8,553 nucleotides of DNA from a virus (taxonomy: Duplodnaviria; Heunggongvirae; Uroviricota; Caudoviricetes), in IMG/VR virus record IMGVR_UViG_2617270968_000006. One strand, written 5' to 3'. The notes beneath the pieces are model-generated. The model ran no database searches. It was not told where the DNA came from and was given only the letters and a program-made list of their open reading frames with translations. Below are positions 1 through 8,553 of this stretch, one piece after another. Position numbers and translations under genes: made by a program. How positions within the stretch are numbered: the first letter of the stretch is position 1; each line of letters starts with the position of its first letter.

Positions 1-1011
1 TTATAACGTCACTCCGCCTTTTAGTGGATTCAGAGCGACGGCGTTCTGCAGGTAGTCAGGCGCAAGGTGCGCATAGGTCATTGTCTGCTGAATGCTCGCA
101 TGCCCCAGAATCTGTTGCAGTGCAATTATGTTGCCCCCATTCATCATGAAATGGCTTGCGAATGTATGCCGCAGAATGTGGGTTGCCTGATTGGGAGGTA
201 TATCAGGTTTCACTCTGCGTAAAATCCCGCAAAACTTCTCATAATCTACCTTGAACAATTTGGCGCTGGCCTCCTCTTTAACTTTTTTCTCCAGTTCCTC
301 AGAAATCGGCACTGTTCGCTTTTTACCGTTTTTGGTTTTCAGGAAGGTAACCCTGCAACTTGTAATCTGTGCTGGTTTTAGTGTGGCAACTTCCGTCCAC
401 CTTCCTCCAGTGCTCAGACATAAAAGCGCGACAAGTAAGTCATCACCAGTCAAAACATTTAGCAGTTTTTCGATTTCTGCTTTTTCCAGGAACGTCATTT
501 CAGGGTTAGCCTCCGTCAGTGGCGGCAGTCCGTGAATTGGGTGTTGCCCGGAAAATTCATCCAATTGAATTAATTTTGTGAACATGCCGGATAATCGGTA
601 CATGTCGCGGTTTATCGTTGCAGCACTGATGCCATCACGTAGTCGCATGGAGCGATAATCCATCAAAGCCCTTTTGTTCATCCGACTCACTGGTATATCA
701 CCTATGCCGCTGATGGTTTTGAGCAGATGATTAAACTCTTTTGTCCCATGCTCGTGGTTTTGCCCGTGGTATTTCCACCAGATGTCGAGCAATTCTGTCA
801 AAGTTCGGCGGTCTGCTCGCTGGCCTCCCCATTCTTTCTGACTGGCATTGGCGATTGTGTATCGCTCAAATGCTAGTGCTTCAGCTTTTCTTTCAAATTT
901 CCTGCGGATGCGTTTTCCGTCGCGACCGCGAGGTCTAATGTCCACTTCATAGCGACCATCATCGAGCTTCTTAATTGCCATAAGAAAGCCCTCCGGCGCT
1001 GTATTCACCAT
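1..1011 (-). CDS. int: Tyrosine site-specific recombinase (P2-type integrase), 336 aa, complete; stop codon at 1..3
   Basis: ATG at 1009-1011 (minus) to TAA at 1-3. C-terminal region has the HxxR motif (HILRHTF) and a likely catalytic Tyr (TMTYAHL); basic N-terminal arm-binding-like domain. Size matches P2 Int (about 337 aa, from memory). Confidence 0.9.
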   Translation of the reverse strand: MVNTAPEGFLMAIKKLDDGRYEVDIRPRGRDGKRIRRKFERKAEALAFERYTIANASQKEWGGQRADRRTLTELLDIWWKYHGQNHEHGTKEFNHLLKTISGIGDIPVSRMNKRALMDYRSMRLRDGISAATINRDMYRLSGMFTKLIQLDEFSGQHPIHGLPPLTEANPEMTFLEKAEIEKLLNVLTGDDLLVALLCLSTGGRWTEVATLKPAQITSCRVTFLKTKNGKKRTVPISEELEKKVKEEASAKLFKVDYEKFCGILRRVKPDIPPNQATHILRHTFASHFMMNGGNIIALQQILGHASIQQTMTYAHLAPDYLQNAVALNPLKGGVTL

Positions 1012-1050
1012 CTTGGTGGCAAATGGTGAAAATGTAATTTTTATATAGAG

Positions 1051-1344
1051 TTAGCCAATCCTTTTCGCGGAGTGGTTGGATTCTGTTGACTCTGGCCCAC
1101 TGTGCGCGAGAGACGGTGCGATTTGTCCCGCTTCCGGCGCTGTTTTATCTGTCATGAGCCATAGTGTGTATTTTTGGAACTGAGGTGCATTGGTGACCTG
1201 CAACACAACTTGGATGCCAGGGTCTTGATGGCCTCCTTCGTAATTCTTTAGCGTTCCTAACGCTATGCCGCTGATTTCACTGAATTTTGCTTGAGTTAGC
1301 CCTTCCGATTGTCTTATTGCTCTTAATTTCTGTGCGATATTCAT
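1051..1344 (-). CDS. C: P2 C-type immunity repressor homolog, 97 aa (internal start of the 158-aa track ORF)
   Basis: Translation MNIAQKLRAIRQSEGLTQAKFSEISGIALGTLKNYEGG... has an N-terminal HTH and a C-terminal segment (QFQKYTLWLMTDKTAPEAGQIAPSLAHSG) strongly reminiscent of P2 C. Sits immediately upstream of and co-oriented with int, as in P2. Start chosen at ATG 1342-1344 because the longer form would overlap the divergent promoter region. Confidence 0.8.
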   Translation of the reverse strand: MNIAQKLRAIRQSEGLTQAKFSEISGIALGTLKNYEGGHQDPGIQVVLQVTNAPQFQKYTLWLMTDKTAPEAGQIAPSLAHSGPESTESNHSAKRIG

Positions 1345-1374
1345 TTGACATAGTCCTGACTTAATGACTATATT
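1345..1374 (+). promoter_or_regulatory. Candidate early promoter (Pe-like) driving cox-B-A: -35 TTGACA (1345-1350), 18-bp spacer, -10 TATATT (1369-1374)
   Basis: Consensus -35 hexamer and near-consensus -10 read directly from the sequence, positioned between the repressor start and cox. Confidence 0.45.
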
Positions 1375-1409
1375 CCCCGAAAAGGTCATTAATCCAGAAC
1401 CTTTTCGGG
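1361..1409. promoter_or_regulatory. Nested inverted repeats in the switch region: TTAATGAC (1361-1368) / GTCATTAA (1385-1392) flanking the -10, and CCCGAAAAGGT (1376-1386) / ACCTTTTCGGG (1399-1409); candidate operator(s) or leader RNA hairpin
   Basis: Perfect 8-bp and 11-bp inverted repeats seen directly in the sequence, overlapping the candidate Pe -10 and transcript start. Confidence 0.4.
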
Positions 1410-1479
1410 CGTGAGTCCAGCGCCGCTTAAACGGTTCCAAGCGGTTTTTAAGGGGCTGGATCCTATGAGGGTAACATAG

Positions 1480-1752
1480 ATGGAAGTTAATGATTATGTG
1501 ATTAAGTACCCGCTTGATGCGGTACATGCGGAAAAGTTTGCAGATTTATTGGGTAAACCAAAAACCGCAGTTACAGAAATGATAAAGGCTAACAAGCTAC
1601 CGGTTATCGAGCTTCGAGATCCAAATAAGCCGAAGGCCCGCGCCGGTGAGAAATGGGTTTTCATTCCAGAGTTTAATCGCGCTGTACGTGAGGCGTTTTA
1701 TAACCGACCGGTTGAACAGCGTGATGCATGGCTTTTGTGGATGGGGTTGTGA
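1480..1752 (+). CDS. cox: Cox-like excisionase / early repressor of lysogenic promoter, 90 aa
   Basis: First gene of the rightward operon. Translation carries KLPVIEL.DP...RAGEKWVFIPEFN...RDAWLLWMGL, which resembles my recollection of P2 Cox. GAGGG RBS 8 nt upstream of ATG 1480. Confidence 0.75.
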   Translation: MEVNDYVIKYPLDAVHAEKFADLLGKPKTAVTEMIKANKLPVIELRDPNKPKARAGEKWVFIPEFNRAVREAFYNRPVEQRDAWLLWMGL

Positions 1753-1754
1753 TT

Positions 1755-1925
1755 ATGAATGAGCCGCGTTGTATTGCGCAGTTACTGCGTAACGAAAGCC
1801 CCAGGGCGATTGACTTCACCATCACCCACGGGAAGGGACGCAAGGGAATCATTATCCGCACCAAAAAACAGAGTCCGTTAAAAAAGGCTCTGACCTTTCT
1901 GAAAAGCCGGAGGGTATGGAAATGA
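1755..1925 (+). CDS. Small hypothetical protein, 56 aa, in the position of P2 orf78
   Basis: ATG at 1755 three nt after the cox stop; basic small protein; assignment by synteny only. Confidence 0.5.
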   Translation: MNEPRCIAQLLRNESPRAIDFTITHGKGRKGIIIRTKKQSPLKKALTFLKSRRVWK

Positions 1926-2422
1926 CAGTGATGACGCTCAATCTCGTTGAAAAACAGCCAGCAGCTATGCGCCGGATAATTGGTAAGCATCTGGCCGTCC
2001 CTCGCTGGCAGGATACATGTGATTATTATAATCAGATGATGGAGCGCGAACGGCTAACAGTTTGCTTTCATGCGCAGTTAAAACAACGTCACGCAACGAT
2101 GCGTTTTGAAGAAATGAACGACGTCGAACGTGAACGACTGGTATGTGCAATTGATGAATTGCGTGGGGCATTCTCAAAACGCCGTCAGGTTGGCGCAAGT
2201 GAGTATGCATATATTAGTTTTTTAACAGTCAGTCAGCGTCGTACTTTATTTATGCATGCCGGATTGACTGAAAAAGAATTCAACCAGCCATACTGGCGAA
2301 TTAATGAAGAATCATGTTACTGGCGTGATGCTTTATTCCGTGCATTACGTGAATTATTCAGCCTGTTTGAGTATGCACCGACAATTCTGACGTCGGTAAA
2401 ACCAGAGCAATATCTGCATTAA
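1922..2422 (+). CDS. B: P2 B-like replication protein (DnaB helicase loader family), 166 aa
   Basis: Position between cox/orf78 and the small-ORF cluster, and a length equal to P2 B (166 aa when started at ATG 1922, 7 nt after a GGAGGG RBS). Start overlaps the orf78 stop (ATGA). Confidence 0.7.
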   Translation: MTVMTLNLVEKQPAAMRRIIGKHLAVPRWQDTCDYYNQMMERERLTVCFHAQLKQRHATMRFEEMNDVERERLVCAIDELRGAFSKRRQVGASEYAYISFLTVSQRRTLFMHAGLTEKEFNQPYWRINEESCYWRDALFRALRELFSLFEYAPTILTSVKPEQYLH

Positions 2423-2485
2423 GTAATTAACCAGAGTTTTTAACGCACTTAATTGTGCGGGGCTTCTTTTTGCCTGGAGAAAGTC

Positions 2486-2710
2486 ATGCATACAGTTTCT
2501 GAAAATCAGTGCGGTAAATACGCATTACTGCTGCAACAGGCCAGAACCGAAGCACAGGCCGATGCAGCGACGCGCTTTTCTTCTCATCTTGACGCCATGA
2601 TTCGACACATCACAAAGGCGGAGTTATCCCGCGTGGAGATAGTCGAGCTGCTCAGTCAGGAGTCGGAAAAATTTCACAATATCGGATTGTCTCGCGGGGA
2701 GGTGCTTTGA
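2486..2710 (+). CDS. Small hypothetical early protein, 74 aa (P2 orf80 position)
   Basis: GGAGAAAG RBS then ATG at 2486; stop TGA 2708-2710 overlaps the next start (TGATG). Function unknown. Confidence 0.5.
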
Positions 2711-3012
2711 TGTCCTGTTCTCGTTCGGTTGTATTACTGAATAACGCCTTAAAAATCGCCGTTATGAAAAATGGCGATTTATCTCTTATTCAACTTGGTC
2801 TTGATAAAGAAAAACGCGAAATAACTGAGTCTGTTATCGCGATTTATCAGAATGAATTAAATATCCTGTCTGATGTGGTCAATTTACTTGTTAAACGCGC
2901 TGTATTTCACAAGCAAATCTCCTCCGTGGATGAACTGACGAAATTAACGACAGAAATTGCCAGCTATTGCGCTGATGAATTTAAAAAACTTAACGACAAA
3001 AGGAGCTGGTAA
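2710..3012 (+). CDS. Small hypothetical early protein, 100 aa (P2 orf81 position)
   Basis: ATG at 2710 overlapping the upstream stop; stop TAA 3010-3012 overlaps the next ATG (TAATG). No recognisable motif. Confidence 0.5.
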   Translation: MSCSRSVVLLNNALKIAVMKNGDLSLIQLGLDKEKREITESVIAIYQNELNILSDVVNLLVKRAVFHKQISSVDELTKLTTEIASYCADEFKKLNDKRSW

Positions 3013-3236
3013 TGCCGGACAACGTGGATTTTATTCAGGAACAACAGGCTGAATTACTGGAGCGTCAGATTAACGCGGCAAGGGTAAAACATTGCGGTGC
3101 TTCTGCGCTGGTTTGCGAAGAGTGTGACGCGCCAATACCTGCTGCCCGTCGTGCGGCTTATCCGTCAGCCACGCGTTGTGTTTCCTGTCAGTCAGTCTTT
3201 GAAGCAAAAAACAAACATTACCGGAGAACGGCATGA
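3012..3236 (+). CDS. TraR/DksA-family C4 zinc-finger protein, 74 aa (P2 orf82 position)
   Basis: AAAGGAG RBS before ATG 3012. Translation contains CEEC-x17-CVSC, the CxxC-x17-CxxC spacing characteristic of DksA/TraR zinc fingers. Confidence 0.7.
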   Translation: MPDNVDFIQEQQAELLERQINAARVKHCGASALVCEECDAPIPAARRAAYPSATRCVSCQSVFEAKNKHYRRTA

Positions 3237-3508
3237 GTATTCGTATTGAAATTGGCGAACGTTATGTCGTTACCAGTGACAGCTTTCAGTTTATTCTCCA
3301 CGAGAAAAAGAGAGCGGAAAGCGGTAAAAACGCCGGTCAGGAATGGCTGGCGGTGGTTGGTTATTGCCCGAAATTAAGCCAGCTCGTTTCCGGCCTGATG
3401 CATCACGATATTCTGACCGGAAGCGCAAAGTCTTTTGCTGATTTAAACGCGCAGGTTGAGCAACTCAGCAGGCGTTGTTCAGAGGCTTTGGGCTCATATG
3501 GCCGTTAA
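3233..3508 (+). CDS. Small hypothetical early protein, 91 aa (P2 orf83 position)
   Basis: ATG 3233 overlaps the orf82 stop (ATGA); its own stop overlaps the start of A by about 11 nt. Confidence 0.5.
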   Translation: MSIRIEIGERYVVTSDSFQFILHEKKRAESGKNAGQEWLAVVGYCPKLSQLVSGLMHHDILTGSAKSFADLNAQVEQLSRRCSEALGSYGR

Positions 3509-5735
3509 AGCCTCCGGGCGTTTTGTCCCTCCGTCAGCATATGCCGCAGGCACCGGTAAGACGTTTACCGGTGCTTATGCATGGAACGCGCCACGCGAGG
3601 CTGTCGGGCGCGAAAGACCCCTTACACGTGACGAGATGCGTCAGGTGCAAGGTGTTTTATCCACGATTAACCGCCTGCCTTACTTTTTACGCTCGCTGTT
3701 TACTTCACGCTATGACTACATCCGGCGCAATAAAAGCCCGGTGCACGGGTTTTATTTCCTCACATCCACTTTTCAGCGTCGTTTATGGCCGCGCATTGAG
3801 CGTGTGAATCAGCGCCATGAAATGAACACCGACGCGTCGTTGCTGTTTCTGGCAGAGCGTGACCACTATGCGCGCCTGCCGGGAATGAATGACAAGGAGC
3901 TGAAAAAGTTTGCTGCCCGTATCTCATCGCAGCTTTTCATGATGTATGAGGAACTCTGCGATGCCTGGGTTGATGCACATGGCGAAAAAGAATCGCTGTT
4001 TACGGATGAGGCGCAGGCTCACCTCTATGGTCATGTTGCTGGCGCTGCATGTGCTTTCAATATTTCCCCGCTCTACTGGAAAAAATACCGTAAAGGACAG
4101 ATGACCACGAGGCAGGCATATTCTGCCATTGCCCGCCTGTTTAACGATGAGTGGTGGACTCATCAGCTTAAAGGCCAGCGTATGCGCTGGCATGAGGCGT
4201 TACTGATTGCTGTCGGGGAGGTCAATAAAGACCGTTCTCCTTATGCCAGTAAACATGCCATTCGGGATGTGCGTGCACGCCGCCAGGCAAATCTGGAATT
4301 TCTTAAATCGTGTGACCTTGAAAACAGGGAAACCGGCGAGCGCATCGACCTTATCAGTAAGGTGATGGGCAGTATTTCTAATCCTGAAATTCGCCGGATG
4401 GAGCTGATGAACACCATCGCTGGAATTGAGCGTTACGCCGCCGCAGAGGGTGATGTGGGGATGTTTATCACGCTGACCGCGCCGTCAAAGTATCACCCGA
4501 CTCGTCAGGTCAGAAAAGGCGAAAGTAAAACCGTTCAGCTTAATCACGGCTGGAACGATGAGGCATTTAATCCAAAGGATGCGCAGCGTTATCTCTGCCG
4601 TATCTGGAGCCTGATGCGCACGGCATTCAAGGATAATGATTTACAGGTCTACGGTTTGCGTGTCGTCGAGCCACACCACGACGGAACGCCGCACTGGCAT
4701 ATGATGCTTTTTTGTAATCCACGCCAGCGCAACCAGATTATCGAAATCATGCGTCGCTATGCGCTCAAAGAGGATGGCGACGAAAGAGGAGCCGCGCGAA
4801 ACCGTTTTCAGGCAAAACACCTTAACCGGGGCGGTGCTGCGGGATATATCGCGAAATACATTTCAAAAAACATCGACGGCTATGCACTGGATGGTCAGCT
4901 CGATAATGATACCGGTAGGCCGCTGAAAGACACAGCTGCGGCTGTTACCGCATGGGCGTCAACGTGGCGCATTCCGCAATTTAAAACGGTTGGCCTGCCG
5001 ACAATGGGGGCTTACCGTGAACTACGCAAATTGCCTCGCGGCGTCAGCATTGCTGATGAGTTTGACGAGCGCGTCGAGGCTGCACGCGCCGCTGCAGACA
5101 GTGGTGATTTTGCGTTGTATATCAGCGCGCAGGGCGGGGCAAATGTCCCGCGCGATTGTCAGACTGTCAGGGTCGCCCGTAGCCCGTCGGATGACGTTAA
5201 CGAGTACGAGGAAGAAGTCGAGAGAGTGGTCGGCATTTACGCGCCGCATCTCGGCGCGCGTCATATTCATATCACCAGAACGACGGACTGGCGCATTGTG
5301 CCGAAAGTTCCGGTCGTTGAGCCTTTGACTTTAAAAAGCGGCATCGCCGCGCCTCGGAGTCCTGTCAATAACTGTGGAAAGCTCACCGGTGGTGATACTT
5401 CGTTACCGGCTCCCACATCTTCTGAGCACGCCGCAGCAGTGCTAAATCTGGTTGAAGACGGTGTTATCGAATGGAATGACCCGGAGGTCGTGAGGACGCT
5501 CAGGGGTGCATTAAAACACGGCCTGAGAACACCAAATCGTCAGCAAAGAAACGGAATCCCGTTAAAACCGCATGAAATTGCACCATCTGCCAGACTGACC
5601 AGGTCTGAACGATTGCAAATTACCCGTAGCGGATATCGCGCGCGGCGGGATAGAACGAGCGAACGAGCTGGAACACGCCGACACCGAGGCCGGTGGCATC
5701 AATTCCGATGTATTCGACGTTGTATTTTTCGGTGA
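3498..5735 (+). CDS. A: P2 A-like rolling-circle replication initiator (HUH endonuclease), C-terminally disrupted: native sequence appears to end near 5625 and the last ~35 codons read through into antisense terminase DNA
   Basis: Start MAVKASGRFVPP at ATG 3498. HUH motif PHWHMML (HWH codons 4692-4700) and a YIAKYISK double-tyrosine motif (Tyr codons 4845-4847 and 4857-4859), as in phiX174/P2 A proteins. Tail SGYRARRDRTSERAGTRRHRGRW is arginine-rich junk overlapping the minus-strand P fragment. Confidence 0.85.
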   Translation: MAVKASGRFVPPSAYAAGTGKTFTGAYAWNAPREAVGRERPLTRDEMRQVQGVLSTINRLPYFLRSLFTSRYDYIRRNKSPVHGFYFLTSTFQRRLWPRIERVNQRHEMNTDASLLFLAERDHYARLPGMNDKELKKFAARISSQLFMMYEELCDAWVDAHGEKESLFTDEAQAHLYGHVAGAACAFNISPLYWKKYRKGQMTTRQAYSAIARLFNDEWWTHQLKGQRMRWHEALLIAVGEVNKDRSPYASKHAIRDVRARRQANLEFLKSCDLENRETGERIDLISKVMGSISNPEIRRMELMNTIAGIERYAAAEGDVGMFITLTAPSKYHPTRQVRKGESKTVQLNHGWNDEAFNPKDAQRYLCRIWSLMRTAFKDNDLQVYGLRVVEPHHDGTPHWHMMLFCNPRQRNQIIEIMRRYALKEDGDERGAARNRFQAKHLNRGGAAGYIAKYISKNIDGYALDGQLDNDTGRPLKDTAAAVTAWASTWRIPQFKTVGLPTMGAYRELRKLPRGVSIADEFDERVEAARAAADSGDFALYISAQGGANVPRDCQTVRVARSPSDDVNEYEEEVERVVGIYAPHLGARHIHITRTTDWRIVPKVPVVEPLTLKSGIAAPRSPVNNCGKLTGGDTSLPAPTSSEHAAAVLNLVEDGVIEWNDPEVVRTLRGALKHGLRTPNRQQRNGIPLKPHEIAPSARLTRSERLQITRSGYRARRDRTSERAGTRRHRGRWHQFRCIRRCIFR

Positions 5736-6180
5736 GTTTGCGGATGGATTCAGCCTGGGTGGCAAAGTCCATGCCTTTCCACTGGTGACGCTCAAGTATT
5801 CTGAATTTGCCACCGGCCACCACCGGCGGTGCCAGTACCACGCATCCGGCGCTGTCGCCACGGTGTGACGGGTCGTAACCAATCCATACCGGGCGGGATC
5901 CGAACGGATTGGCGGCAAACGGCGCATAGTCTTCCCATTCTTCCAGCGTGTCGACCATGCAGCGTTGCAGCTCCTCGAACGGGAACACCGACGCCTTGTC
6001 GTCAACAAATTCACACATGAACAGGTTTTTAAAATCGTCGGCGCTGTTTTCGCGTTTAAGCTGCTCAATGTCGAACAGCGTGCAGCCACCTTTCAGGGCG
6101 TCCTCAATGGTGACAATCTGCCGCCACTGGCCGTCCGCACAGAGAAGCCCACCGGCAAGGGCGTTATGTCCCGCCGACAC
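5620..6180 (-). pseudogene. Fragment (about 186 codons) of terminase large subunit (P2 gpP-like), nuclease-domain region; N-terminal ATPase portion deleted
   Basis: Translation contains WIGYDPSHRGDSAGCVVLAPP and EYIGIDATGLGVGV, typical acidic-residue motifs of the terminase RNase-H-like nuclease domain. Minus-strand orientation relative to A matches P2, where Q and P are transcribed opposite to A. Far too short for a terminase. Confidence 0.7.
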
Positions 6181-6185
6181 CGGCC

Positions 6186-6746
6186 GTGATGGAATCTGAC
6201 ACCGATTATCGTCTGCGTATTCAGCAGGCCTTTGAAGGTTTAAGCGTCGCCGGGTCGGTGGGTGCCTATCAGTATCATGGTCGCAGTGCTGACGGGCGTG
6301 TCGCGGATATCTCTGTCACCAGTCCGTCTCCGGCCTGCGTCACCATCTCTGTGCTGTCACGTGAAAATAACGGTGTCGCATCCGAAGACCTGCTGGCGGT
6401 GGTGCGTAACGCCCTTAATGGCGAGGACGTCAGGCCGGTGGCCGACCGCGTGACCGTGCAGTCTGCCGCCATCGTTGAATATCAGATAAACGCCACGCTT
6501 TACCTTTACCCTGGTCCCGAAAGCGAACCCATTCGCGCTGCCGCTGTGAAAAAGCTGGAAGCGTATATCACGGCACAGCACCGGCTGGGGCGCGACATCC
6601 GTTTGTCTGCCATTTATGCCGCTTTGCATGTGGAAGGCGTGCAGCGTGTCGAGCTGGCCGCACCACTGGCCGACATTGTGCTCAACAGTACGCAGGCGTC
6701 TTTCTGTACCGAATACCGCGTCGTGACCGGAGGCTCGGATGAGTGA
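6186..6746 (+). pseudogene. C-terminal fragment (about 186 aa) of baseplate assembly protein J-like; 5' part deleted
   Basis: Directly followed by an overlapping ATGAGTGA junction with the gpI start, as for J/I in P2; abuts the terminase fragment with no intervening genes. Confidence 0.65.
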
Positions 6747-6903
6747 TTCGCGACTGCTGCCGACTGGCTCATCACCGCTTGAAGTTGCCGCCGCAAAAGC
6801 CTGTGCGGAAATTGAAAAAACGCCGGTCAGTATTCGTGAGCTGTGGAACCCGGATACCTGCCCGGCAAATCTGCTGCCGTGGCTGGCGTGGTCATTTTCG
6901 GTT
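6739..6903 (+). pseudogene. N-terminal fragment (about 55 aa) of baseplate protein I-like; remainder deleted
   Basis: MSDSRLLPTGSSPLEVAAAKACAEIEKTPVSIRELWNPDTCPANLLPWLAW matches my recollection of the P2 gpI N-terminus; the frame then degenerates and terminates at 6966. Confidence 0.6.
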
Positions 6904-6939
6904 GGCGGAGTTCTCCATCAGCCTGGCTACCGGTCGGGC

Positions 6940-7114
6940 AGATATTTACACGGAAACACCGGTTAAAGTGTCAGGCTTTAAGCGCGTCATAGACGAGCAG
7001 GACTGGACAATCACTAAGGTGACACATTTTCTGAATAATAGCGGCTTCACGACGTCCTTGGAGCTTGAGGTCAGGCTTTCTGATGTGGAGTACGAAACAG
7101 AAGATGATGAGTGA
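6940..7114 (+). pseudogene. C-terminal fragment of tail protein D-like (last ~60 aa), ending with an acidic tail EYETEDDE immediately upstream of ogr
   Basis: Different reading frame from the I fragment; position immediately upstream of ogr matches P2 gene order (D-ogr). Start of homology is approximate. Confidence 0.55.
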
Positions 7115-7195
7115 TGTTTTTGTTTTATCTGTTTGTTTTATAAGGATAAATTAACTAAAATGGCACCATCAACAAAACCGGAAGAGGTGCTCGCG

Positions 7196-7414
7196 ATGTT
7201 TCATTGTCCTTTATGCCAGCATGCCGCACATGCGCGTACAAGCCGCTATATCACTGACACGACAAAAGAGCGTTATCACCAGTGTCAGAACGTGAATTGC
7301 AGCGCCACGTTCATCACCTATGAGTCGGTACAGAGATACATCGTGAAGCCGGGAGAAGTCCACGCCGTAAGGCCGCACCCGTTGCCGTCAGGGCAGCAAA
7401 TTATGTGGATGTGA
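7196..7414 (+). CDS. ogr: Ogr late-gene transcription activator (zinc-finger), 72 aa, intact
   Basis: MFHCPLCQHAAHARTSRYITDTTKERYHQCQNVNCSATFITYESVQRYIVKPGEVHAVRPHPLPSGQQIMWM corresponds to P2 Ogr as I recall it, with Cys4 motif CPLC...CQNVNC. GAAGAGG RBS before ATG 7196. Confidence 0.9.
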   Translation: MFHCPLCQHAAHARTSRYITDTTKERYHQCQNVNCSATFITYESVQRYIVKPGEVHAVRPHPLPSGQQIMWM

Positions 7415-7424
7415 TCACAAAAAT

Positions 7425-7450
7425 AGCCCCTCAGTTGAGGGGCTTTATTT
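7425..7450 (+). terminator. Rho-independent terminator after ogr
   Basis: Stem AGCCCCTC (7425-7432), loop AGTT, GAGGGGCT (7437-7444), followed by TTTATTT. Confidence 0.7.
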
Positions 7451-7457
7451 ATGGTCG

Positions 7458-7476
7458 ATGTGGACGCTATGTGGAC
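7458..7476 (+). repeat. Two direct repeats ATGTGGAC (7458-7465 and 7469-7476); candidate integrase arm-type binding sites of the att P-arm
   Basis: Direct repeats seen in the sequence; they resemble my recollection of the P2 Int arm-site consensus (TGTGGACA-like) and sit where the P arm should be (just after ogr). A third similar copy, ATGTGGAT, lies at the ogr 3' end (7403-7410). Confidence 0.5.
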
Positions 7477-7542
7477 AGCGGTTGACATAAATCCATTTAT
7501 ATCATCAGGTTAGGTGCTTTTTTGTGACACCATCCCTGTCTT

Positions 7543-7569
7543 CCCCCACATGCTGTGGGGGTTTTTTTT
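7543..7569 (+). terminator. Rho-independent terminator-like hairpin; possibly the 3' end of the host gene at the att core
   Basis: Stem CCCCCACA (7543-7550), loop TGC, TGTGGGGG (7554-7561), then T8 (7562-7569). Confidence 0.65.
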
Positions 7570-7597
7570 ATCCTCAATTTGCCTGCTGCTTAATGCA

Positions 7598-7650: not shown

Positions 7651-8553
7651 ATGAATCAATCTTATGGACGGCTGGTCAGTCGGGCGGCGATTGCTGCGAC
7701 GGCGATGGCTTCGCTGCTATTGCTGATTAAAATTTTTGCATGGTGGTATACCGGGTCGGTGAGTATTCTCGCCGCGCTGGTGGATTCGCTGGTGGATATC
7801 GGCGCGTCGTTGACGAATTTATTGGTGGTGCGATATTCCCTGCAACCTGCCGACGATAATCACTCGTTTGGTCACGGTAAAGCTGAGTCCCTCGCGGCGC
7901 TGGCGCAAAGTATGTTTATCTCCGGTTCGGCACTATTCCTGTTTTTGACGGGTATTCAACATCTGATATCTCCAACACCGATGACAGATCCAGGCGTCGG
8001 GGTTATCGTGACAATTGTGGCGCTAATTTGTACGATTATCCTTGTCTCGTTTCAGCGTTGGGTGGTGCGGCGGACGCAAAGCCAGGCGGTGCGGGCTGAT
8101 ATGCTACATTACCAGTCTGATGTTATGATGAACGGCGCAATTCTGCTGGCGCTGGGGTTGTCCTGGTACGGCTGGCATCGCGCCGATGCTCTGTTTGCAT
8201 TGGGAATCGGCATCTATATTTTATATAGCGCGTTACGCATGGGATATGAGGCGGTACAGTCATTACTGGATCGCGCATTGCCTGATGAGGAACGGCAAGA
8301 AATTATTGATATCGTGACTTCCTGGCCGGGTGTTAGCGGCGCTCACGATCTTCGCACGCGGCAGTCAGGGCCGACCCGCTTTATTCAGATTCATTTGGAA
8401 ATGGAAGACTCTCTGCCTTTGGTTCAGGCACATATGGTGGCGGATCAGGTAGAGCAGGCTATTTTACGGCGTTTTCCGGGATCGGATGTAATTATCCATC
8501 AGGACCCCTGTTCCGTCGTACCCAGGGAGGGTAAACGGTCTATGCTTTCATAA
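7651..8553 (+). CDS. fieF: Cation diffusion facilitator family Fe(II)/Zn(II) efflux transporter FieF (YiiP), 300 aa
   Basis: Translation from ATG 7651 ([53 protein letters not shown]...) matches enterobacterial FieF as I recall it, including the HSFGHGKAE motif region and a hydrophobic transmembrane profile. The track start at 7633 is a TTG upstream extension. Confidence 0.95.

Follow-up and report, generated by a model that had tools for sequence, protein, structure and literature searches.

Layout of the remnant prophage

The stretch of DNA analysed here (the window, 8,553 nucleotides) holds a P2-like prophage between cpxP and fieF of Escherichia coli, which three internal deletions have reduced to ~7.5 kb. 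BLAST of the window against P2 yields four collinear blocks, while the left 1.75 kb, comprising the integrase, a 97-aa HTH repressor and cox, is of non-P2 type. The main features of the element and its right flank are as follows:

1-1011, minus strand: integrase (Pfam Int_N and Phage_integrase), 326 aa in the source contigs
1051-1344, minus strand: immunity repressor, a 97-aa HTH protein with an HTH_3 match, apparently intact
1345-1374, plus strand: early-promoter candidate (Pe-like), TTGACA-18-TATATT, 11/12 consensus positions, the best in the window
1480-1752, plus strand: cox (excisionase/early regulator), Pfam Phage_Cox, E=7e-25
1754-5628, plus strand: block 1 (P2 26290-30164), orf78, B, orf80-83 and A', 97.4% identity
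5626-6168, minus strand: block 2 (P2 1500-2042), P', an internal, promoterless 543-nt piece of the large terminase gene P
6169-6902, plus strand: block 3 (P2 11623-12356), J' and I', the 3' 578 nt of baseplate gene J and the 5' 164 nt of I
6905-7504, plus strand: block 4 (P2 23745-24342), D', Pogr, ogr, its terminator and the P arm
6905-7114, plus strand: D', the last 210 nt of tail gene D
7458-7504, plus strand: phage P-arm of attR; ATGTGGAC occurs here twice in direct orientation (probable Int arm sites)
7526-7572, plus strand: attR core and right end of the prophage; it repeats the cpxP 3'UTR (CpxQ) terminator, the other copy of which lies at attL
7651-8553, plus strand: host fieF (CDF metal efflux; Cation_efflux and ZT_dimer), outside the element, 99.8% identity to E. 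coli

The integrase is not of the P2 type, as its nucleotide identity to P2 int (72-81%) is confined to its two ends, and it is specific for an att site in the terminator of cpxP/CpxQ; the CpxQ sRNA derives from the cpxP 3'UTR (PMC4817254). The repressor belongs to an immunity class different from that of P2 C, and its 97-aa gene is called in L008 and annotated in strain 26561. Judging from its position, the early-promoter candidate is putatively Pe of the cox-B-A' operon. A' lacks the last 155 nt of A, and its ORF continues out of frame to 5735; it matches Phage_GPA (E=5e-123) and keeps the ori nick site at 5356 in a context identical to P2. P' matches Terminase_6C/6N in Pfam, and the J'I' segment, from which the pV promoter is absent, matches Baseplate_J and Tail_P2_I. 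The ATGTGGAC repeats are probably Int arm sites, by analogy with the P-arm annotation of P2 Int. The attL and attR repeats share 27 nt exactly and 47 nt at 98%, and the attR core folds into a hairpin of -16.5 kcal/mol; ogr lies ~110 bp from this core, at the phage-host junction. No Rfam family reached its gathering score anywhere in the window. Under permissive settings, minus-strand Hrs1 was placed at the cpxP 3'UTR with 28.7 bits at attR and 44.5 bits at attL, below its gathering score of 56.4.

The deletions and the reality of the arrangement

Microhomology at the three junctions amounts to 3, 0-1 and 0-2 nt, with GTA shared at the A/P junction, and the I/D junction may carry a 2-nt filler; these traits point to illegitimate recombination. 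Two candidate deletion makers were rejected: the remnant's own Int, since the six endpoints resemble the cpxP-type core no more closely than background sequence does, and the A nickase acting at pseudo-ori sites, since CGCCTCG/GAGTCC is unlike the junctions and no junction lies at ori.

A patchwork of A', P', J'I' and D'-ogr might also result from mis-joined reads of a normal prophage, the more so as the source genomes are drafts, two contigs of one of them overlap across the whole remnant, and the exact arrangement is absent from the complete E. coli genomes searched. However, three contigs, drawn from two E. coli draft assemblies (GCA_000700185.1 and GCA_000700205.1), show the identical arrangement and run without a gap into host DNA on either side, which excludes a simple mis-join. 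The short microhomologies are typical of real deletions, and analogous remnants occur in finished genomes. An assembly artefact or chimera is thus extremely unlikely.

The ogr gene and its product

The right end of the element carries a complete transcription unit:

7133-7161, plus strand: sigma-70 promoter of ogr (Pogr), -35 TTGTTT at 7133-7138, 17-nt spacer, -10 TAAAAT at 7156-7161
7183-7187, plus strand: ribosome-binding site (RBS) AGAGG, 8 nt before the ogr ATG
7196-7414, plus strand: ogr, a 219-nt ORF from ATG to TGA, 72 aa, encoding a C4 zinc-finger late-gene activator
7425-7451, plus strand: rho-independent terminator of ogr, 8-bp GC-rich stem, 4-nt loop and U-rich tail

An earlier note on this DNA had described ogr as complete, which is borne out by the full 219-nt ORF, by a match of the product to positions 1-47/47 of Pfam PF04606 Ogr_Delta (E=1.1e-21; 76.9 bits, cutoff 26.3) and by its identity to P2 Ogr over 72/72 aa. 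At the DNA level, the gene differs from P2 at seven positions, six of them synonymous and one changing the stop codon from TAA to TGA. In the ORF list of the window, ogr is nested in a longer TTG-started ORF, and the automatic gene call of the source contig gives an 84-aa ogr product from an ATG at 7160. This ATG overlaps the -10 element, so that a transcript from Pogr would not contain it; the 72-aa P2-style annotation is the correct one, not that of 84 aa.

All four cysteines of the CX2CX22CX4C motif (C4, C7, C30 and C35) are present in the translation. The residue tied to contact with the RNA polymerase alpha subunit through rpoA109 suppression, which we take to be Tyr42, is wild type, the Ogr of the window being that of P2. 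Suppression of rpoA109, a mutation of the alpha subunit, by ogr mutations is mentioned in PMC11434276 where it cites King et al. 1992, and the CX2CX22CX4C zinc finger together with four late promoters carrying TGT-N12-ACA constitutes the mechanism of the Ogr family (PMC3931495). Given the identity with P2 Ogr, the window protein would be expected to activate late promoters through TGT-N12-ACA-type sites as well.

Expression signals of ogr

Pogr represents the -35 (TTG, 7133-7135) and -10 signals that are annotated for P2 ogr, transferred onto the window from the P2 record. Promoter, RBS and start codon are invariant across seven aligned sequences (the window, P2, the K-12-type remnant and four other remnants). 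The hairpin at 7425-7444 with its U-tract has a folding energy of -17.8 kcal/mol (z=-3.5 against shuffles) and is the annotated ogr/F-operon terminator of P2 (P2 24265-24288). The RBS and the downstream terminator that the earlier note had assigned to ogr are therefore both in place, and the gene also keeps its own promoter, a point absent from that note. Between A' and ogr, no convincing terminator-grade hairpin was found on the plus strand; a terminator-like match at 6876-6892 was rejected as a terminator, because the fold of 6865-6905 is no better than shuffled sequence (z=+0.6).

In the literature, ogrK is sometimes listed in the SOS regulon with a "potential SOS box" (PMC6590174). Control of ogr by LexA was rejected here: 7085-7200 contains no CTG-N10-CAG, and no convincing box lies at Pogr. 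Compared with the LexA box sequence TACTGTATATATATACAGTA, the best 20-mers match at 12/20 positions, lack the CTG/CAG anchors and are no better than the background maximum of the window.

The question of expression is relevant, as ogr could be intact and yet effectively silent, without activity even in trans, either because Pogr needs a phage function that has been lost or because the resident repressor or chromatin silences the gene. The -35 element (TTGTTT) is indeed weak and matches the consensus at 3/6 bases only, so that a strict consensus scan passed over Pogr and gave no promoter upstream of ogr. The remnant also still encodes its repressor, and Slettan et al. are said to have found in 1992 that a P2 lysogen makes less ogr transcript than the cryptic copies of K-12 and B do. 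Since the intact repressor, cox and int are kept here, unlike in the K-12 cryptic prophage PR-X, expression from the remnant could be correspondingly lower. However, the promoter elements are the same as those of P2 ogr and K-12 ogrK, and no operator-like or LexA-like site overlapping Pogr was found. In K-12, the yegZ-ogrK spacer is recognised by RNA polymerase holoenzyme on its own (PMC3946193), and ogrK mRNA has been detected in a condition-dependent manner, with a 6.6-fold increase in the presence of glutathione (PMC5811628). We consider a silent ogr quite unlikely.

Loss of all Ogr targets in cis

What survives of the late region is limited to the promoterless P' (543 nt), J' (578 nt), I' (164 nt) and D' (210 nt) fragments, such that the earlier claim of a deletion of all late operons is right in substance. 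Its corollary, that no late promoters are left in cis, is supported by the activator-binding regions annotated in P2: 3057-3087 (PP/PO), 10239-10266 (PV) and 17555-17583 (PF) all lie within the deleted parts. A single TGT-N12-ACA occurs in the window, at 7470-7487 inside the ATGTGGAC Int arm repeats. It was rejected as a residual cis target of Ogr, as it is followed by the CpxQ terminator copy and ~2 chance matches are expected in 8.5 kb. The gene is thus an orphan: the element has kept ogr but no Ogr-dependent late promoter and no complete late gene, and ogr adjoins a P2-family attR junction with host DNA in an element flanked by cpxP and fieF.

A probably active activator without cis targets

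The likely explanation of these observations is that ogr encodes an active, probably weakly constitutive activator without cis targets, which was left behind by its position in a gutted P2-like prophage. A P2-like prophage inserted itself into the terminator of cpxP (CpxQ), upstream of fieF, and was then hollowed out by three internal deletions, all ending upstream of ogr, so that the whole unit of promoter, RBS, 72 codons and terminator survived. The product is expected to fold as a CX2CX22CX4C zinc protein, as suggested by its identity with P2 Ogr and by knowledge of the family. At P2-family late promoters, it would bind the TGT-N12-ACA-type element around -55 and bring in RNA polymerase by way of its alpha subunit. 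Pogr would probably provide a low, constitutive level of Ogr. Derepression of the early operon may provide additional Ogr through transcripts that run on from the early promoter, because no convincing terminator lies between A' and ogr.

With no promoter in cis, Ogr has no role inside the element and can act only in trans. A P2-like phage that superinfects the cell or already resides in it could offer its late promoters, and a P4-like satellite its Psid/PLL-type promoters; an expressed orphan Ogr could complement ogr-defective P2-like phages. Because the protein is identical to P2 Ogr, such activity in trans is very likely, and as far as sequence can tell, ogr is very probably active and probably expressed. 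According to the statement in PMC8628076 that cites Halling & Calendar 1990, Ogr and P4 delta both drive the late genes of P2 and P4, and the same source describes P4-like satellites as very common in Enterobacterales (PMC8628076). Action in trans and the status of an unselected leftover, which the earlier note had both left open, are not mutually exclusive.

Abundance of stranded ogr genes

The earlier note had named an orphan ogrK in E. coli K-12 as a precedent, and this is confirmed by the annotated cryptic prophage PR-X, which consists of yegZ (D') and ogrK. Among 5426 complete E. coli genomes, the Pogr-ogr-terminator unit is present in 2074, some D together with ogr in 2115, full-length D with ogr in 1583 and the P2 P/Q segment in 1634. 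By difference, ogr is present but the set of late genes incomplete in ~440-530 genomes (8-10%). PR-X of the K-12 type, together with its flanks, is found in 360 genomes, many of them from lab strains. The NCBI pipeline routinely names the gene ogrK. Six independent remnants were mapped (those of the window, 26561, BA22372, H1827/12, 1218KP and the K-12 type), all with an intact ogr; their junctions differ, which indicates independent events. Besides the window and the K-12 type, these are:

cpxP-fieF: remnant of strain 26561, P'/D' junction, no activator sites, early region intact (int through A)
cpxP-fieF: remnant of BA22372, FI'/D' junction, keeps the pF site
cyaR/trhP: remnant of H1827/12, J'/D' junction, keeps the pV site with V and W
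cyaR/trhP: remnant of 1218KP, intact ogrK at the attR end

All four resemble the window: their internal deletions show short microhomology, and the ogrK next to attR is intact. Strain 26561 is also like the window in lacking any activator site; in this strain, an additional ORF of 642 nt separates ogr from attR. H1827/12 and BA22372 are unlike the window in that they keep the pV and the pF site, respectively. Stranded ogr genes have been known since 1992 and are common, which makes the present case more ordinary than the earlier note allowed.

Selection or leftover?

The orphan Ogr might alternatively be a domesticated regulator that is kept by selection because it benefits the cell. It could prime or sabotage incoming P2-like phages, activate a P4-like satellite (with its defence cargo) independently of a helper, or act on a host promoter. 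A domesticated case within the Ogr family is Serratia NucC, a homologue of Ogr that is encoded by a cryptic prophage and governs nuclease and bacteriocin genes of its host. At first sight, the remnants are in line with this idea: many independent ones at two att sites have retained an intact Pogr-ogr-terminator unit, their cuts in D lie at P2 23191, 23453, 23485, 23745 (twice) and 23917 with none inside the ogr unit, and 5-7 silent changes in the DNA have left the protein invariant. However, the argument from retention is circular, as all remnants examined were found via ogr or D, a route that does not directly sample ogr-less remnants; universal retention in such a set proves nothing. Likewise, silent-only divergence is what selection in live ancestral phages would be expected to leave, and is uninformative on the remnant phase.

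A more direct comparison is provided by the two ends of the element. The cpxP-attL-int joint occurs in 787 genomes and the ogr-attR-fieF joint in 691; these counts ignore phylogeny, and the latter can miss cases with cargo between ogr and attR, as in strain 26561. The int end is thus kept at least as often, there is no excess retention of ogr, and the counts provide no evidence of selection for the gene. No host target for the window ogr is evident, nor does the window contain an Ogr-type site with a plausible promoter, as the lone TGT-N12-ACA faces a terminator.

Data from other systems point in both directions. P4-like satellites are very common in Enterobacterales (PMC8628076), Ogr-family genes are kept in the domesticated P2-type tailocin loci of Xenorhabdus (PMC13280938), and a K-12 ogrK deletion grew slightly less with glutathione (PMC5811628). 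In K-12 chemostats, however, deletion of ogrK-yegR-yegS was beneficial, and the gain was attributed to yegS alone (PMC3708739). On balance, domestication is unlikely. The persistence of ogr would be explained most simply by its place beside the host junction, its small target size and the young age of the remnant, rather than by host benefit, which accords with the preferred reading of an active, positional leftover.

Recurring deletion endpoints

Some endpoints recur between remnants. Among 19 deletion endpoints in P2 coordinates, two pairs coincide within 1 nt, the probability of which is ~0.0013 if endpoints are uniform. In the first pair, the P' of the window begins at P2 1503 and that of 1218KP ends at 1502; the two remnants have kept different sides of this point and hence do not represent one shared event. 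In the second, the D' fragments of the window and of K-12 both start at GC(G/A)GAGTTCTCC, P2 23745, in sequences that are ~4% diverged and have different loci and Int arms. Wider sampling around P2 ~1502 returned 33 genomes with a truncated best match, and the only two sampled are cut at P2 1262 and 1138.

The breakpoints GGCGTGTA/GCGGAT in gene P and GGGGCGTT/GCGGAG in D resemble the P2 att core CCCGTGTA/AGGGAG. Aligned in register, the P site GGCGTGTA/GCGGATAT matches the core CCCGTGTA/AGGGAGAT at 11/16 positions, within the top 0.03% of P2 positions, and the D site does so at 8/16. In K-12, the att core itself forms the left side of the junction, consistent with recombination by Int between this core and a pseudo-site in D. 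In the window, neither side of a junction is an att site, and the Int has a different specificity, with a core unlike the endpoints.

Pure chance does not comfortably explain a D' start at the same nucleotide, which might hint at something beyond random decay. A bolder version of this idea would be that sequence-specific breakpoints trim P2-like prophages time and again, and at different chromosomal sites, to the same D'-ogr stub, and that the orphan Ogr, constitutively expressed, is kept because it alters the outcome of infection by P2 or P4 satellites. We regard this scenario as very unlikely. If it were true, orphan ogr would count not as debris but as a functional module of the host that arises again and again. 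Recurring endpoints, if confirmed, would point to a specific mechanism of prophage decay and would matter more than the orphan ogr.

Implications

A stranded functional ogr shapes P2/P4 genetics in a host-specific manner, as ogr-defective phages grow on such strains, and it could in principle influence the widespread P4-like satellites. By itself, the present case matters little, and its practical value lies in annotation. The element is best described as a ~7.5-kb non-viable P2-like remnant in the CpxQ/cpxP terminator, with immunity probably retained and excision possible. Its ogr should be called as 72 aa, with the knowledge that ~8-10% of complete E. coli genomes hold ogr without the full late set.

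Comparison with known systems

The closest known counterpart is PR-X of K-12 MG1655, a 629-bp element that consists of yegZ (a pseudogene of the 3' part of D, b2083) and ogrK (b2082) and abuts the sRNA gene cyaR. Like the window, it comprises a 3' fragment of D, Pogr, an intact ogr, the terminator and attR without late genes; promoter, RBS and start codon are identical, and in both cases the att site overlaps the 3' end of an sRNA (cyaR in K-12, CpxQ here). PR-X differs in its chromosomal site and its Int/att specificity, and the left junction of D' is the att core in PR-X and gene I in the window. In addition, PR-X has lost int, the repressor and the early region, whereas the ~7.5-kb remnant keeps int, the repressor, cox, B and A'. 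The K-12 Ogr carries A57V relative to P2 Ogr, with which the window Ogr is identical; this substitution, as computed here, agrees with what Slettan et al. reportedly described in 1992. Presumably, E. coli B holds a cryptic ogr copy equivalent to that of PR-X. In the same work, both K-12 and B are said to support growth of ogr-deleted P2 through their cryptic ogr genes, which were reportedly transcribed constitutively.

The intact P2 prophage shares with the window the Ogr protein, the promoter core, the RBS, the terminator and the place of ogr between D and att. In P2, ogr is accompanied by four late promoters in cis (PP, PO, PV and PF) and by the transcript of the F operon, all of which are deleted in the window. 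Sp13 of O157 Sakai is similar in being a P2-like prophage with most morphogenetic genes missing and regulatory functions kept; it carries a P4 epsilon-like gene, the ogr homologue of Sakai resides on the P4-like Sp2, and Sp13 was excised and packaged experimentally (PMC2669165). Finally, P4 delta, 186 B and Serratia NucC share with the window Ogr the Pfam family, the zinc-finger architecture and cross-activation of P2/P4 late promoters (PMC8628076, PMC3931495), but they are diverged paralogues or orthologues with targets of their own.

Composition of the element and the start of ogr

The element is a mosaic, in which window positions 1-1752 and 1754-7504 differ in their relation to P2. The first part, comprising int, repressor, and cox, is of a non-P2 class: the integrase gene aligns with that of P2 only at its ends (72-81% identity), while the remainder is unalignable. 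From orf78 onward, i.e., throughout the second part, identity to P2 amounts to 94-98%. Automatic annotation assigns ogr a product of 84 aa (window 7160-7414; 13663-13917 in L008, one of the source contigs carrying this arrangement), the ATG of which overlaps the -10 element of ogr's own promoter, Pogr. The experimentally based annotation in the P2 record gives 72 aa, and the longer call is probably a systematic over-call.

Transcription, excision, and replication

Two features of the early region bear on the residual functions of the remnant:

1345-1374, + strand: candidate promoter of the early operon
3498-5735: A', which lacks the last 155 nt of replication gene A and ends with 35 out-of-frame codons overlapping the P' fragment

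In the deleted arrangement, no convincing terminator was found on the + strand between the early operon and ogr (window 1345-7196), and, judged from the sequence, derepression could thus yield one RNA spanning A', antisense P', J', I', D', and ogr. The sequence surrounding the ori nick at window 5356 is identical to P2, and int, cox, attL, and attR are intact in appearance. Since these four appear intact and A is truncated, the remnant may still be capable of excision, and it should not replicate autonomously.

Recurring deletion endpoints and related loci

Independent remnants share deletion endpoints (window 5626-5630 and 6902-6906; position 2696 of L007 and 1500 of L004, two of the compared loci). 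P2 position 1503 is the start of P' in the window, and 1502 is the end of P' in E. coli 1218KP, which carries another decayed P2-like prophage; likewise, P2 23745 is the first nucleotide of D' both in the window and in the cryptic K-12 prophage PR-X. Under a uniform null, the probability of such coinciding endpoints is ~0.0013. The P2 att core and the breakpoint in P are alike, in register, at 11 of 16 positions, and "TA" is present in 7/10 junctions. A junction of the A|P type also occurs in the complete genome of strain 41 (H286, NZ_CP076285.1 2209117-2209855), where a terminase fragment directly adjoins a replication endonuclease gene, but the cut lies at P2 ~1262, compared to 1500 in the window.

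In strain 26561, the terminator of ogr is separated from the Int arm sites at attR by an inserted 642-nt ORF (L002 13506-14147) that neither the window nor P2 carries; this position may be a slot for cargo (moron) genes. In the draft GCA_000700205.1, contigs 27 and 23 (L009, L010) overlap over the entire remnant: one of them stops within the P arm of attR, and its partner begins just inside attL. Either redundancy in the assembly or a repeat, e.g., another P2-like element, could account for the overlap.

Attachment sites in sRNA terminators

The window-type Int integrates in the cpxP 3'UTR/terminator (window 7526-7572; L008 6313-6385), from which the sRNA CpxQ originates (PMC4817254). The prophage brings a near-perfect replacement copy of this terminator, with 1 nt different in the hairpin loop at attL. 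PR-X of K-12 overlaps the 3' end of cyaR (L003 7184-7201) and thus resembles the window element in having its att site at the 3' end of an sRNA gene, cyaR in one case and CpxQ in the other, which places both P2-family att sites in sRNA terminators.
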